Shown here: positions 14,828 to 19,345 of the stretch, one piece after another
Layout of the letters: the number at the start of each line of letters is the position of its first letter
How positions within the stretch are numbered: the first letter of the stretch is position 1
Assembly: GCA_046160825.1 (NCBI GenBank)
Contig: JBJXHC010000037.1
Location: 4,799 to 68,798 of the forward strand
DNA: 64,000 nucleotides
Direction of reading: 5' to 3'
Source: Bacteroidota bacterium
GTDB lineage: Bacteria; Bacteroidota; Ignavibacteria; UBA10030; UBA6906
Notes under the pieces: generated by a model
The model's database searches: none
What the model was told of the DNA's origin: nothing
Seen by the model: only the letters and a program-made list of their open reading frames with translations
Position numbers and translations under genes: made by a program

Positions 14828-15811
14828 TTGAGTTTTTCGGATAATAATGGACAAACGGAGCTGATTTCAATGGTTGAGAACAAAACCGACGAACAAAAGC
14901 TCGCCAACTTCGAGGCAAAGATCAATCGCGGCGAGAAGATCGAACCCGGCGATTGGATGCCGGAGGATTATCGGAAGAACCTCATCCGCATGATGAGCCA
15001 GCATGCACACAGCGAGATTGTGGGACAGCTTCCTGAAGGGAAGTGGATTCCATTTGCTCCGGGATTCCGTCGCAAGCTCACGCTGGTTGCCAAGGTGCAG
15101 GACGAGGCCGGCCACGGCCAGCTTCTCTACGCAGCGGCGGAGACACTCGGCGTTACCCGCGAGCAAATGCTCGATGATCTCCTGAGCGGCAAAGCAAAGT
15201 ATGCGAATGTTTTTAATTACCCGACGCCAACATGGGCGGACGTTGGGGTGATCGGTTGGCTTGTGGATACCGCCGCGGTCATCAACCAGACAATGCTTGC
15301 ACAAAGCTCGTATGGTCCGTACGGACGCGCGATGAAGCGCATCTGTTATGAAGAGTCGTTCCACATCAAGCAGGGATATGATTCCGTCGTCGTGCTTGCG
15401 AAGGGAGTGCCTGCACAGAAGGCAATGGTGCAGGATGCCGTCAACCGCTGGTGGTACCCGACGCTCATGATGTCCGGTCCGCCGGAGAGCAGGGGACTTT
15501 CGACACACTCACAGCTTGCGATGCGATGGAAGATCAAGACGAAGACCAACGAGCAGGTGCGGCAGGAGTTTGTGGACCACATCGTGCCGCAGATTCGCGC
15601 GCTCGGCTTGGATGTGCCCGACAAGGATTGCCGTTACGACGAGAAGACCGGCCACTGGCACTACACCCAACCCGACTGGGAAGAACTCAAGCGCGTTGTT
15701 AACGGCGATGGGCCGTGCAACAAGGAGCGGTTGGAAGTTCGCCGCAAAGCGCATGATGATGGTCGGTGGGTGAGAGAGGCGCTATCGCAGCATGTTAACA
15801 GGTTGTCCTGA
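14828..15811 (+). CDS. paaA: 1,2-phenylacetyl-CoA epoxidase subunit A
   Basis: Ferritin-like di-iron oxygenase. '[51 protein letters not shown]' and '[11 protein letters not shown]' match PaaA. Confidence 0.9.
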
Positions 15812-15825
15812 TACGATTCTGAATT

Positions 15826-16035
15826 ATGCCCTACTACGATGATGATGGAAATGAACTCAATCCGGATCTTGTTCCCAAACCAACACTATGTGTTGCCTGC
15901 ATGAACGATGACACAGAGGATAAGCATGAAAGAATCCTATGCAACCTCACAAGACTGGATCAAAGTGGAGATACGGAATTCAAGTGTTACGCGTTTGTAC
16001 CGAAGCGTCCGGCATCCACGAGGGATTCATGGTGA
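15826..16035 (+). CDS. Small Cys-containing hypothetical protein (possible Zn-ribbon)
   Basis: 69-aa ORF 14 nt after the paaA stop. Acidic N-terminus, Cys pattern CxxC...C...C ('CVAC', 'ILC', 'KCY'). No similarity recognised. Confidence 0.35.
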   Translation: MPYYDDDGNELNPDLVPKPTLCVACMNDDTEDKHERILCNLTRLDQSGDTEFKCYAFVPKRPASTRDSW

Positions 16036-16067
16036 GTCGTTGCTGATGTAAGAGAGGACACTGTTTT

Positions 16068-16310
16068 GTGCCAACGATACTCAGAGTCAAAGATTATCGG
16101 TTCTTCTTTTTCAGTCGTGAGGGTAATGAACCCGCCCATATACACATTGAACAAGCAGAGCGCTATGCAAAGTTCTGGTTGAATCCGGTTCAGTTGGCGG
16201 CATCGGAGGGATTTCGCAGTAGTGAGATTGCAGAGTTGAGGAAGTTGGTTCAAGAAAATAGAACTCTATTTGAGGAGAGATGGAATGAGTACTTTGGCAG
16301 TAAGGGTTGA
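16068..16310 (+). CDS. DUF4160-family small protein (toxin-antitoxin-like pair member)
   Basis: GTG start. 'MPTILRVKDYRFFFFSREGNEPAHIHIE' matches the DUF4160 N-terminal signature (MPT..R..G.RF.FYS.E...PHIH). Confidence 0.7.
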   Translation: MPTILRVKDYRFFFFSREGNEPAHIHIEQAERYAKFWLNPVQLAASEGFRSSEIAELRKLVQENRTLFEERWNEYFGSKG

Positions 16311-16527
16311 ATCAAGAATTATCGACTTGTCCTTTACCTCGAACGCTCTCAAAGTCGTGCTTGCAGACGGAAGGGAAGTTTCTGCACCGTTGGAATGGTT
16401 TCCCCGGTTGCGCGATGCGAGTGAACAACAGAGAAAAAACTGGCGCCTGATTGGTAGCGGGATCGGCATTCACTGGGAGGATGTTGACGAGGATATTTCC
16501 GTGAATAGTCTTCTGGCAGCAAACTAG
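16285..16527 (+). CDS. DUF2442-family small protein (partner of DUF4160)
   Basis: Start at ATG 16285 ('MSTLAVRV...'), overlapping the DUF4160 gene by 26 nt. 'WFPRLRDASEQQRKNWRLIGSGIGIHWEDVDEDIS' matches the DUF2442 C-terminal motif. Confidence 0.7.
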   Translation: MSTLAVRVESRIIDLSFTSNALKVVLADGREVSAPLEWFPRLRDASEQQRKNWRLIGSGIGIHWEDVDEDISVNSLLAAN

Positions 16528-17120
16528 TATTTCCATAGTAAAATTCGATAGGCGAGCGCGACACTGGAGGTGACAGGTGAAAAATTTCGCTTCGTTATCA
16601 CCCGAATCAACGGCAACAAACAAGGCATTTGACCTATTATGGCTACAAAACACACAATGCCCACGTTCTTGCAAGGCGTGATAACCGCTTAAGCATATGA
16701 ACGCTGGTTACGTCGAAAGGCGCATGCTCATGTTATCCGTGATCGAAAGCGCGAACGAAAGTGTACTGTATCGAACTACAAAGAAGCGATTCATGCCGCT
16801 GTACTTCTGTCACAAGGAAAGGATGCTTACACGGGGGAGACCCTCCACTGGAAGCTCATTAGCACATACAAAAACGAAGAATCTAAAAGGGAAGACACGC
16901 GTACAAAACCGGTTTTGCAATGTTGCCAACAGTAGATCACGTAACAGCAGAAGCGTCCGAAGCGAGCTTCAAAATTTGCTCCTGGCGCACGAATGATGCC
17001 AAGAACGATATGTCACTCGAAATGTTTTTGAAGTTATGTCAATTAGTACTCAAGCACGCCGGATATGATGTGAAGAAGAGTGCGTAAGACCTTTGGCTCT
17101 GATAGTTAAACTCAAACGAC

Positions 17121-17408
17121 ATGTCCGACACCCAGTGGGAAACATACGAAGTCTTTCATCAGAGTAAGAAGGGCGACCCGCATCAGTCCGTTGGCACTGT
17201 GCATGCGCCCGACCCTGAGATGGCGCTGCAGATGGCGCGTGACCAGTTTGCACGACGGCTCAAGTGCGTCAGCTTGTGGGTGGTGAGAACGAAAGACATC
17301 ACCGCAACCAACTACCAGGACGAAGACTTCTTTGCACAGACCACCGATAAAAGCTATCGCGACCCCAAGGCATTCGACGCGCCGATGAAAGACCTCTCGC
17401 ATGACTGA
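17121..17408 (+). CDS. paaB: 1,2-phenylacetyl-CoA epoxidase subunit B
   Basis: 95 aa. 'WETYEVFHQSKKGDPHQSVGTVHAPDPEMALQMARDQFARRLKCVSLWVV' matches PaaB. Confidence 0.85.
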   Translation: MSDTQWETYEVFHQSKKGDPHQSVGTVHAPDPEMALQMARDQFARRLKCVSLWVVRTKDITATNYQDEDFFAQTTDKSYRDPKAFDAPMKDLSHD

Positions 17409-18171
17409 GCTATCAAAAGGCACTCCACGGGAACCGCTTCTTCGTTTCATTCTCGCAATGGCCGACGATGAATTGATGCTCGGTCACCGCAACGCCGAGT
17501 GGACCGGACACTCGCCCATCCTCGAAGAAGACATCGCGTTCTCCAACATCGCACAGGATGAGCTTGGGCATTCGCTCGTCTGGTACACGCTGCACGAGGA
17601 GTATACAGGAAAATCTCCCGACAGCATGGCGTTTGAACGCGCATGGGGTGACTTTACATGCTGCCGGTTTGTTGCGTACCCCAAAGGCGATTTCGCGTAC
17701 ACGGTTGTTCGGCAATACCTGTTTGATGAAGCCGAACAGGTGCGACTGGCGTCGTTTGCCAAAAGTTCGTTCACACCATTCAAAGATATCGCCGGCAAAC
17801 TGTTGCGCGAGGAAGCGTATCATCTCATGCACCTAAAGGGGCTGGTAATGCGACTCGGCGATGCAACTGAGGAAAGTCACCGACGTATGCAGGCCGCATT
17901 GGACGTTGCGTTTCCGCAAGCGCTCGGCATGTTCGAAAAGGTCGAAGGCGAAGACGAACTGGTCAAGGCAGGAATCATCGCGGGTAATTCAACGTTTCAA
18001 GAAGAGTGGATGAGCAGGGTAAAGCCCGTTCTGTTATCGGCTGGCCTCAAGGTACCATTGTCACCCCATGCCGATCTCGGCGGACGTCAGCGCAAGCATA
18101 CGGAACACTTGAAGCAACTGGTGGATGATTTACAGTCGGTGTATAGGATTGCGCCGGAGGCGAAGTGGTAA
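17401..18171 (+). CDS. paaC: 1,2-phenylacetyl-CoA epoxidase subunit C
   Basis: 'LLRFILAMADDELMLGHRNAEWTGHSPILEEDIAFSNIAQDELGHSLVWY' matches PaaC. 8-nt ATGACTGA overlap with paaB. Confidence 0.85.
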   Translation: MTELSKGTPREPLLRFILAMADDELMLGHRNAEWTGHSPILEEDIAFSNIAQDELGHSLVWYTLHEEYTGKSPDSMAFERAWGDFTCCRFVAYPKGDFAYTVVRQYLFDEAEQVRLASFAKSSFTPFKDIAGKLLREEAYHLMHLKGLVMRLGDATEESHRRMQAALDVAFPQALGMFEKVEGEDELVKAGIIAGNSTFQEEWMSRVKPVLLSAGLKVPLSPHADLGGRQRKHTEHLKQLVDDLQSVYRIAPEAKW

Positions 18172-18220
18172 AGCATTGTATAATGACGGGCTCTCCCCCT
18201 GTTGAGCTAGTCGACAAGAC

Positions 18221-19345
18221 ATGCGCGGACTCTGCCCAATCCACCCCTCTCTTCCTAAGAGAGGGGCCGGGCCTGCACGCCGGAGGGCGTTATGGCCCGC
18301 AGGCGGGGGAGAGTTTGCGGGGACATCTACAATGAGCCTTTCCCGGAATTCTCATCTGATGCATCTCGCCCGGGAAGTGTGTCGTGAGCTTCGCAAGAAC
18401 CAGACCCACGCCGAGCAAATCATGTGGGGTGGCCTCAGAGCAAATCGATTCCGGGAAAAGAATTTTCTCCGTCAACATCCAATCTTCGTAGATGCGAATG
18501 GTAGAGAGACATTCTACGTTGCTGATTTCTATTGCCACGAGCATCGTCTCGCCATTGAGCTTGATGGCCGGATCCATGAGCGCACCAAGGAACGCGATGA
18601 AGTAAGAACAATGGTCATCAACGATCAAGGCATTGAGGTTCTTCGTTTCAGAAATGAAGAAGTGGAGAAGGATTTCAATGGTGTTCTTGAGCGCCTTGCA
18701 GAAAAACTAAATTTGCCGCCACGGAAAGACCAGAACTCTCCCCTCACCCCCGCCTGCCTCAACGAAAACTCGGAGGCGGGCAGGCCTCCCTTAGAAGGGG
18801 AGGGGGATGTTGGGCTTGTGAACAATGTACCAACCTCCCCTCTCTTCCCAAGAGAGGGGCAGGGGGAGAGTTTCTTATCCACCATCTGGTCCGCACTCGC
18901 CAAGATCCAGGATCCGGAAATCCCCGTTCTCTCTCTTGTGGAAATGAAAATCATCCGCAGTGTAACGGTGACGAATGGCGAAGTGTCGGTCGTGATGTCG
19001 CCGACGTTCGTCGGGTGTCCGGCGCTGGACCATATGAAGGAGGAGATCCACGAGCGACTCAGGAATCTCGGTTGTGAGAAAGTGAAAATCGCCATGACGT
19101 TTTCGCCGCCATGGTCAACCGATATGTTGGACGAAGCGACCCGGGAAAAATTGCGCGTCTATGGTATCGCACCTCCGCCGAAATTCGATCCGGTACTCGT
19201 CGACAGTTTGAATATAACTGCTCACTGCCCCTTCTGCGGTTCCGGGCAGACCCGTATGCAAAGTCCATTCGGTGCAACGCTCTGCAAGCAAATGTATGTG
19301 TGCGAAAACTGCCGGCAGCCGTTTGAGCGCTTCAAGCCGGTATGA
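18221..19345 (+). CDS. paaD: In-frame fusion ORF: DUF559 (Vsr-like endonuclease fold) domain followed by 1,2-phenylacetyl-CoA epoxidase subunit D
   Basis: Residues ~38-165 are DUF559 ('MSLSRNSHLMHLAREVCRELRKNQTHAEQIMW...FYVADFYCHEHRLAIELDGRIHER...GIEVLRFRNEEV'). Residues ~205-374 are PaaD ('IWSALAKIQDPEIPVLSLVEMKII...FVGCPALDHM...CPFCGS...CENCRQPFERFK'). An in-frame GTG at 18818 could also initiate a stand-alone PaaD. Confidence 0.7.
   Translation: MRGLCPIHPSLPKRGAGPARRRALWPAGGGEFAGTSTMSLSRNSHLMHLAREVCRELRKNQTHAEQIMWGGLRANRFREKNFLRQHPIFVDANGRETFYVADFYCHEHRLAIELDGRIHERTKERDEVRTMVINDQGIEVLRFRNEEVEKDFNGVLERLAEKLNLPPRKDQNSPLTPACLNENSEAGRPPLEGEGDVGLVNNVPTSPLFPREGQGESFLSTIWSALAKIQDPEIPVLSLVEMKIIRSVTVTNGEVSVVMSPTFVGCPALDHMKEEIHERLRNLGCEKVKIAMTFSPPWSTDMLDEATREKLRVYGIAPPPKFDPVLVDSLNITAHCPFCGSGQTRMQSPFGATLCKQMYVCENCRQPFERFKPV
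18244..18316. repeat. Hairpin repeat copy 1 (CCCCTCTC-TTCCTAA-GAGAGGGG ... GGGGGAGAGTTT) upstream of the DUF559 domain
   Basis: Perfect 8-bp inverted repeat at 18244-18266. Motif GGGGGAGAGTTT at 18305-18316. A near-identical copy lies at 18837-18873. Confidence 0.6.
18837..18873. repeat. Hairpin repeat copy 2 (CCCCTCTC-TTCCCAA-GAGAGGGG CA GGGGGAGAGTTT) between the DUF559 domain and the PaaD domain
   Basis: Same 8-bp stem and 7-nt loop (one loop substitution) as copy 1, immediately followed by GGGGGAGAGTTT. Further imperfect hairpins lie just upstream at 18747-18783 and 18788-18806. Confidence 0.6.

Follow-up and report, generated by a model that had tools for sequence, protein, structure and literature searches.

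The paaC-paaD junction of a Bacteroidota bacterium carries a gene for a Vsr-like nuclease of the DUF559 family that lies between two palindromic multi-hairpin units and continues, in a single reading frame, through the second unit into a complete PaaD. It was found in a stretch of 64,000 nucleotides of contig JBJXHC010000037.1, referred to here as the window. We propose with moderate confidence that this locus is a nuclease-plus-palindrome module, comparable to REP/RAYT systems (REP, repetitive extragenic palindromic) or to homing endonucleases, that has become fixed as a DUF559-linker-PaaD translational fusion. The descriptive half of this reading is much firmer than the mechanistic half. According to the mechanism that we suggest, a DUF559 cassette in palindromic units would have become established at the paaC-paaD junction in an ancestor of the present Bacteroidota (Ignavibacteria-like) group, and its insertion would have removed the paaD spacer, start codon and first few codons. 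Translation from an ATG at 18332 would then run through the stop-less DUF559 sequence and the 3' unit (a linker of 47-62 codons) into PaaD, producing PaaD as the C-terminal part of a DUF559-linker-PaaD protein. Ribosomes crossing the unit would perhaps be the sole way to express paaD past so stable a structure.

The open reading frame (ORF) in question lies at 18221-19345 on the plus strand, as do the paaC, repeat, nuclease and PaaD features given below, and encodes 374 aa. The ORF list and Pfam place a DUF559 domain, a linker and a complete PaaD in one frame, in agreement with the initial annotation of this sequence. Pfam assigns aa 51-163 to DUF559 (PF04480; E-values of 6e-28 to 4.5e-27, 94.5-97.3 bits against a cut-off of 20.6), aa 221-286 to FeS_assembly_P and aa 333-372 to Zn_ribbon_PaaD, and TIGR02159, the NCBIfam equivalog for PaaD as a phenylacetyl-CoA epoxidase subunit, scores 177.8 bits against a cut-off of 108.15. 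The protein had been taken to start at 18221. The conserved start is instead the ATG at 18332 (MSLSR...), common to all relatives and to several stand-alone DUF559 proteins, and 18221-18331 reads as open translation of the upstream repeat only. From this ATG the DUF559 module, a Vsr-like PD-(D/E)XK nuclease, extends to 18733 (Pfam domain at 18371-18709) with no stop codon of its own. PaaD proper follows at 18875-19345, with FeS_assembly_P at 18881-19078, the Zn ribbon at 19217-19336 and a TGA stop codon at 19343-19345. Upstream of the cassette lies paaC (17401-18171, stop codon TAA at 18169-18171; TIGR02158, 241 bits against a cut-off of 133). The genes paaA, paaB and paaC precede the fusion ORF in the window, and the operon order matches in three of the related loci discussed below (L001, L005 and L006).

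Two near-identical copies of a 23-nt hairpin, CCCCTCTCTTCC[T/C]AAGAGAGGGG, had been reported on either side of the DUF559 segment, and these are exactly the two matches found in 64 kb with up to three mismatches allowed; none would be expected in shuffled sequence. Copy 1 (CCCCTCTCTT-CCT-AAGAGAGGGG, 18244-18266) and copy 2 (CCCCTCTCTT-CCC-AAGAGAGGGG, 18837-18859), both perfect, are parts of larger multi-hairpin units of 130-140 nt with an outer stem AACTCTCCCC/GGGGAGAGTT. The downstream unit (18734-18873), which constitutes the in-frame linker and is conserved in all fusion loci, follows the plan AACTCTCCCC, three to four internal hairpins, GGGGGAGAGTT. Its outer-left arm AACTCTCCCC (18734-18743) is followed by hairpins at 18751-18785 and 18785-18803, a weak stem, the perfect hairpin and the outer-right arm GGGGGAGAGTTT (18862-18873); the two further hairpins of the initial annotation are thus real and lie at about 18751-18803. 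The upstream unit (18188-18316) has an equal plan with a decayed left part and consists of four pieces, its outer stem closing the RNA fold: a degenerate outer-left arm GGGCTCTCCCCC (18188-18199), a decayed middle, the perfect hairpin together with an extra hairpin insert (18269-18304), and the outer-right arm GGGGGAGAGTTT (18305-18316). Each hairpin had been described as followed by GGGGGAGAGTTT, which is true in a loose sense: 2 nt lie between them downstream, and upstream a 38-nt hairpin-containing insert intervenes. The DUF559 ORF is tightly enclosed by a perfect 10-nt inverted pair, GGGGAGAGTT at 18306-18315 and AACTCTCCCC at 18734-18743, each arm of which also pairs outward.

Both units fold far more stably than their shuffled counterparts. 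For the downstream unit the minimum free energy is -81.9 kcal/mol as RNA (z-score of -5.9) and -39.7 as DNA (z-score of -5.2), and the upstream unit forms a closed multi-branch RNA structure of -73.4 kcal/mol (z-score of -4.1). An Rfam scan with E-values up to 10 returned only sub-threshold microRNA-type chance matches (at most 26.5 bits, against gathering scores of 58-90).

When the DUF559-plus-linker part served as query against protein databases, the source protein (P0001, annotated as PaaD in a Bacteroidota metagenome-assembled genome) was recovered along with four diverged proteins of DUF559-PaaD architecture, with identities over the query of 78% (L004), 66% (L001), 59% (L003) and 66% (L002). 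Exact-protein look-ups for the window ORF and P0001 found no record. A metagenome scan added two loci of the L001 lineage (L126 and L127), so that the fusion architecture is found in P0002-P0005, L001-L004 and L126/127, which come from independent NCBI, Logan and JGI assemblies. An assembly artefact was rejected, as the same fusion recurs in at least six independent assemblies. In all fusion loci the DUF559 ORF is stop-less and continues across a homologous unit into PaaD; the linkers of the five lineages are 59, 49, 62, 47 and 52 codons long, and all indels are multiples of three. L002 and L003 have the upstream unit, the window and L004 have part of it and L001/L126 lack it; by this comparison it appears to be dispensable.

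These findings revise how the cassette had been pictured. The recent local insertion first envisaged does not agree with the same in-frame arrangement in four more diverged lineages with saturated synonymous divergence. The idea of a cassette with hairpin ends stands in that the element is discrete and varies in presence among relatives; its ends, in turn, are composite units of 130-140 nt, the upstream one dispensable. An ancient domain fusion in relatives that lack the repeats had been named as the contrary outcome, and of this the old fusion was found, with the repeats still present in it.

Pairwise Nei-Gojobori counts indicate what is being conserved at this locus. In the DUF559 part the ratio of nonsynonymous to synonymous change (dN/dS) is 0.04-0.11, with a proportion of synonymous differences (pS) of 0.37-0.86, which is near saturation and much like PaaD, and which suggests that the nuclease is kept as a working protein. 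Among ten pairs, the linker has a pS of 0.16-0.65 (0.16-0.54 in nine of them) and a dN/dS of 0.34-1.1 (0.6-1.1 in nine); its three codon positions are about equally conserved and its synonymous sites are better kept than those of the flanking genes. Such a low pS together with a dN/dS of about 1 indicates that conservation of the linker acts on the nucleic acid and not on the peptide, the frame needing only to stay open. The reading frame across the linker is evidently kept by selection in these lineages. Given the frame-keeping indels, the lack of a conserved internal start and the purifying selection on DUF559, PaaD is most likely made as a fusion from the ATG at 18332.

It is unlikely, in our estimation, that two separate proteins are made instead, the long ORF being an accident of a stop-free GC-rich repeat and PaaD starting at a GTG at 18818-18820 or at a non-canonical codon. 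This in-frame GTG does exist, as had been pointed out, and is a candidate internal start inside the folded unit that is kept in the closest relative, L004. Stop codons are rare in GC-rich units, and an apparent DUF559-HisF fusion elsewhere (L214) has an in-frame TTG at its junction that could start HisF separately. Against this, the GTG is common only to the window and L004, and its equivalent is absent from L001, L002 and L003. The 62-codon linker of L001 contains no in-frame ATG, GTG or TTG at all, and neither L002 nor L003 has an in-frame start codon near PaaD, so that the stand-alone PaaD translated from the GTG that the initial annotation considered cannot serve as a general solution. In the window itself the codon is buried in the most stable of the folds described above, and the multiple-of-three indels and the stop-less DUF559 hold in every one of the five lineages.

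The cassette is polymorphic among close relatives. The nearest PaaD proteins (74-83% identical) are ordinary proteins of 159-165 aa without DUF559, and in a simple neighbour-joining tree of about 150 PaaD residues the fusions are scattered among PaaDs from empty sites. Empty paaC-paaD junctions, suggested as a check in the initial annotation, were found in four relatives. In L005, which is syntenic with L001, the paaC stop codon is followed after 25 nt by an ATG belonging to paaD itself, and three further junctions (L206-L208) are similar to L005 and free of units. The flanks of L001 and L005 share 74-100% nucleotide identity in 150-nt windows, mostly 88-99%, and the native paaD start seen in L005 is gone from L001. 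No recombination tract is evident around the cassette between these two loci, only a mild dip to 90% beside the junction. Compared with empty-site relatives, which have a 20-46-nt spacer and an ATG of their own, the PaaD of the window has likewise lost its native start codon and first few codons; it is not a free-standing protein of some 160 aa that begins at a codon of its own, the spacer and ATG that L005 and L206-L208 have at this place having been replaced. In L006, which is the nearest relative of L003, paaC and PaaD are separated by a single decayed unit, still in frame and without DUF559, that aligns to the L003 units at 75-78% identity. It is the leftover expected from recombination between two flanking units.

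These comparisons support the view that the DUF559 gene and its palindromic flanks form a discrete cassette that can be gained or lost. The identities of DUF559 and PaaD between lineages are roughly parallel (89/88, 77/82 and 69/66%). We favour one old insertion with later losses or allelic exchange over repeated fresh insertions, which are less probable. Loss could have followed two routes, recombination between flanking units deleting DUF559 and leaving a solo unit (L006), or allelic replacement restoring the empty site (L005). The same data bear on a further explanation, in which the nuclease domain was recruited for a PaaD-related role in phenylacetate catabolism and the repeats are relics. 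Conservation of the fusion across lineages and strong purifying selection on both domains would fit such an adaptive fusion. We nonetheless regard it as highly improbable, because the domain is missing from the closest PaaDs, which branch among the fusions in the tree, constraint on the linker acts on nucleic acid rather than on peptide, and stand-alone DUF559 genes of the subfamily have the same flanking units in unrelated contexts.

The initial annotation had asked whether the hairpin is a dispersed repeat of its genome. It was not seen as such in the 64 kb available, and it proved instead to be a pan-bacterial motif. We searched for exact matches in one genome per species (596 Gb), and the counts given are lower bounds; most of the sequences compared here are metagenome assemblies. 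Exact copies of the hairpin were found in at least 119 stretches of genome, which represent about 20 phylum-level groups, whereas about one match for 20 fixed bases would be expected by chance in 596 Gb at uniform composition, by our own arithmetic. The matches listed include Ignavibacteria, several Bacteroidota orders, Zixibacteria, Fibrobacterota, Calditrichia, Margulisiibacteriota, Saganbacteria, Patescibacteria, Aminicenantes, Cloacimonadota, Latescibacterota, Cyanobacteria, Planctomycetota, Chloroflexota, Omnitrophota and others. Single genomes, complete chromosomes included, carry multiple copies, with at least six in the Ignavibacteriaceae chromosome OY762937.1 and four to five loci each in several metagenome-assembled genomes. 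Nearly all copies sit in one common frame that opens with (G)AACTCACCCC and a few bases, continues with one to four GC-rich perfect hairpins and closes with GGGGTGAGTT(C). The 74 complete units that we extracted are about 40-200 nt long, mostly about 50-60 or 80-90 nt, and have the boundary consensus AACTC[A/T]CCCC ... GGGG[T/A]GAGTT, with a terminal inverted repeat of 10-11 nt in AT-rich surroundings. Their hairpin stems come in a few C/T-rich variants, each still perfectly palindromic.

Some copies are informative about how the units multiply. Four units of OY762937.1 (L009, L018, L042 and L057) have in common a genome-specific inner segment of about 45 nt (..GAGCCTGAAGAT...GGTGGCGAGGGTGAGTT) and look like the within-genome amplification of one unit subtype; these 8-kb loci contain no DUF559 gene. 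Pairs of units within one contig can have near-identical flanks (L085 57/290, L096 3797/7329, L112 641/1082 and L124 3938/5570), indicating that units sometimes lie in locally duplicated segments and are not independent insertions. A viral collection yielded four stretches from three viral contigs with the hairpin, and phages were rejected as the vehicle because so few viral contigs carry the hairpin. Three exact hairpins lie on a single 32-kb contig assigned to viruses (IMGVR_UViG_3300028840_006884; L209 and L210), which is possibly a provirus or a misclassified host fragment.

A DUF559 gene is present in about 10 of the at least 119 hairpin loci, in each case 27-90 nt from the hairpin. For the converse sample, 80 metagenome loci were fetched by similarity to this DUF559 subfamily alone, using a narrow DUF559 alignment. 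Each of the 80 carries, no farther than 250 nt away, either the outer motif or a GC-rich hairpin with at least 8 bp; 49 do so on both sides and 31 on a single side. Counted per flank, the motif or a GC-rich hairpin was found in 119/143 flanks versus 2/165 control segments at least 1 kb away. The loci follow two layouts, type A with the gene nested in one unit (AACTCACCCC-hairpin-gene-hairpin-GGGGTGAGTT), and type B with the gene between two complete units, as in the window. Gene-less units look like internal-deletion derivatives of the type A element. On a plasmid of the cultured Synechocystis sp. B12 (CP101712.1; L213 1385-1900), a type A cassette, GAACCTCACCCC-hairpin-gene-hairpin-GGGAGTGAG, splits a DUF1156 gene and parts its N-terminal piece (...AEIGDLYPG) from the remainder (...VAYLWTRTVKCPNPACG...), which indicates an insertion into coding sequence in a cultured organism. 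We thus propose that the paaC-paaD module is one copy of a widespread nuclease-plus-palindrome system with gene-less short units scattered in many bacterial genomes, and that the DUF559 nuclease may recognise or cut the hairpin units, driving or maintaining their spread. Recognition of the units by DUF559 would explain both their conservation at the nucleotide level and the co-travel of gene and unit. The closest analogies would be a RAYT with its REP or REPIN sequences, and a homing endonuclease with the repeat as its homing site.

The association appears to be new. The hairpin-flanked DUF559 cassette had been thought undescribed, and our literature searches (DUF559, PF04480, the repeat strings, REP plus Vsr, small dispersed repeats) and Rfam gave no description of a DUF559-unit association. 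Among predicted targets of programmed inversion, one survey lists enrichment for 'DUF559 domain-containing protein' (odds ratio of 14) and 'endonuclease domain-containing protein' (9.6) (PMC9881135); inverted units around DUF559 genes may be the reason for this enrichment. A long in-frame run-on into the downstream gene is rare among the 80 loci and is essentially the paaD case. Gene models that join DUF559 to HisF and to acetylglutamate kinase (ArgB) (P0061/L214 400-470; P0064 and P0065) have a short hairpin-encoded 'SSP...GG' linker that sits at the first residues of the host protein.

DUF559 is among the commonest uncharacterised nuclease-like domains in bacteria. The protein studied here matches PDB entry 3HRL (E-value of 1e-10 with a single sequence, 3e-28 with a profile) and, in its C-terminal half only, the catalytic domain of I-Bth0305I (3R3P; profile E-value of 8e-5, 25.5 bits). 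Counted from the methionine at 18332, residues D65, E76, D78 and H82 are invariant in 22 subfamily members and kept in all five fusion proteins. The NCBIfam equivalog PRK09767 scores 66 bits, far under its cut-off of 218, and a Pfam scan detected neither a Y1 transposase domain nor an intein (Hint) domain. Vsr, DUF559 and I-Bth0305I belong to one PD-(D/E)XK clade (PMC3424549; PMC3384342).

This kinship raises the alternative that a homing-type selfish DUF559 parasitises independent REP-like repeats, cutting gene-less units and being copied into them by repair, in which case the unit at paaC-paaD pre-existed. We consider this possible, if rather doubtful. It draws on the profile match to I-Bth0305I, a member of the EDxHD/Vsr-like enzymes that are an established homing endonuclease family (PMC3384342), on the lack of a gene in most units among the matches listed, on genes found nested in a unit and also between units, on the solo unit at the paaC-paaD site of L006, and on presence versus absence of the cassette between near-identical relatives. 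The protein is, however, only about 130 aa long with no extra domain detected, whereas I-Bth0305I is bipartite and extends beyond its catalytic domain (PMC3384342). A dN/dS of about 0.1 at saturated synonymous divergence suggests long-term function, unlike the usual decay cycle of homing genes, and the truly empty sites (L005 and L206-L208) are unit-free, so that no landing pad is evident.

The strong RNA folding of the units is also compatible with a system that acts on RNA, in which DUF559 binds or cleaves units in transcripts, as the Vsr-like RAP domains of FASTK proteins do, and the units are dispersed elements of post-transcriptional control or stability, not mobile DNA. At position 7 of the outer stem, 38/89 units have a wobble pair, G-T (G-U), on one strand, which reads as a C-A mismatch on the opposite strand, several inspected units lie directly upstream of gene starts, and Vsr-like folds that act on RNA are documented (PMC11879112). 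The wobble variant is not consistently oriented with respect to the DUF559 gene, however, and no Rfam family matches. Near-identical copies within a genome and the cassette that splits a gene point, moreover, to spread at the DNA level. We therefore give this possibility little credence.

The system resembles several known ones in part. Like REP/REPIN sequences with their RAYT, the units are short GC-rich palindromes, mostly intergenic in the copies inspected, several per genome and often clustered, with no target-site duplication seen; cognate repeats surround one small gene of nuclease type, as the per-flank counts given above indicate, and this gene is a long-term resident under purifying selection. 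Unlike in REP/RAYT systems, the enzyme is a Vsr-like PD-(D/E)XK DUF559 protein, not an IS200/IS605-type Y1/HUH transposase, the repeat is nearly identical over about 20 phylum-level groups rather than lineage-specific, and each unit forms a closed multi-hairpin module whose outer stem is fixed. With EDxHD/Vsr-like homing endonucleases such as I-Bth0305I and with 'fractured genes', the system shares a homologous catalytic domain and the form of a small selfish nuclease ORF between or inside host genes whose presence varies among close relatives (PMC3384342). The differences here are that the gene is embedded in palindromic repeats, that nothing was detected beyond a catalytic core of about 130 aa, that Pfam finds no intein (Hint) domain (no search for introns was made), and that the gene is fused in frame to a host protein rather than spliced out. 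Homology is thus common to both, but the genomic setting is not.

As with miniature inverted-repeat transposable elements (MITEs) and their parent transposons, gene-less units of 50-200 nt share terminal inverted repeats and subterminal hairpins with the type A element, but there is no DDE transposase and no target-site duplication, and the gene often lies between units instead of inside one. The protein 3HRL, a structural-genomics target from Neisseria gonorrhoeae, and DUF559 proteins of the E. coli type are clear sequence homologues; 3HRL is functionally uncharacterised, and neither a fusion nor an association with repeats is on record for it. Integron attC sites (RYYYAAC ... GTTRRRY) were rejected, as AAC and GTT are outermost in the 74 units inspected, the base before AAC is mostly G, not Y, and the sequence of the units is highly conserved whereas attC is variable. 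The absence of a Hint domain in the Pfam scan speaks against an intein. The system thus falls outside REP/RAYT by its enzyme, outside MITEs and DDE transposons by the lack of duplication and transposase, and outside attC by its ends, and it matches neither the inteins nor an Rfam family.

Several observations weigh against a mobile nuclease-plus-palindrome module as we propose it. Among the matches listed, about 90% of hairpin copies have no DUF559 gene nearby, and the window contains no unit other than the two described, which gives no sign of amplification in its own genome. At 73 unit ends, adjoining direct repeats were at most 2 nt long, so a target-site duplication is not seen. Variants of the outer stem are mostly wobbles or mismatches, with no clean compensatory covariation. 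Types A and B coexist, neither clearly derived from the other, and the parallel divergence of DUF559 and PaaD suits long vertical residence better than active homing. For the fusion itself, the low pS of the linker could also be explained by gene conversion with other copies, and the GTG at 18818 could still yield some stand-alone PaaD in the lineage of the window.

On a broader scale, we suggest tentatively that the AACTCACCCC...hairpin...GGGGTGAGTT units and the 'ADFYC-type' DUF559 may constitute an unrecognised class of horizontally spreading mobile or selfish elements of bacteria, in which a Vsr-like nuclease, rather than any known type of transposase, propagates the palindromic repeats. 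Such elements would persist through in-frame fusion to the starts of host genes, where their loss would cost the expression of the gene. A large DUF559 subfamily is tied to a specific, nearly invariant palindromic unit, which provides a testable substrate for the nuclease. The pairing suggests a partnership of the REP/RAYT kind, with an enzyme of another fold, that extends over about twenty phylum-level groups. It also accounts for many odd gene models annotated as 'PaaD', 'HisF' and 'ArgB' that begin with a DUF559 and contain low-complexity 'SPL...GEG' peptides. In evolutionary terms, it would be a clear case in which a selfish cassette replaced the translation start of a host gene and was then retained in frame over long divergence.

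Other junctions of the paa operon also carry additional genes. In the window, an insert of about 1.3 kb (15826-17120) separates paaA, which ends at 15811, from paaB, which starts at 17121. Within it lie paired DUF4160 and DUF2442 genes (16068-16310 and 16270-16527) and small ORFs without a family match. In L001, L005 and L006, paaA and paaB overlap or are about 30 nt apart at most, and in L002 a HindIII-like restriction-modification pair lies directly upstream of paaB. The paa operon of this group thus seems to collect selfish modules at its gene junctions.

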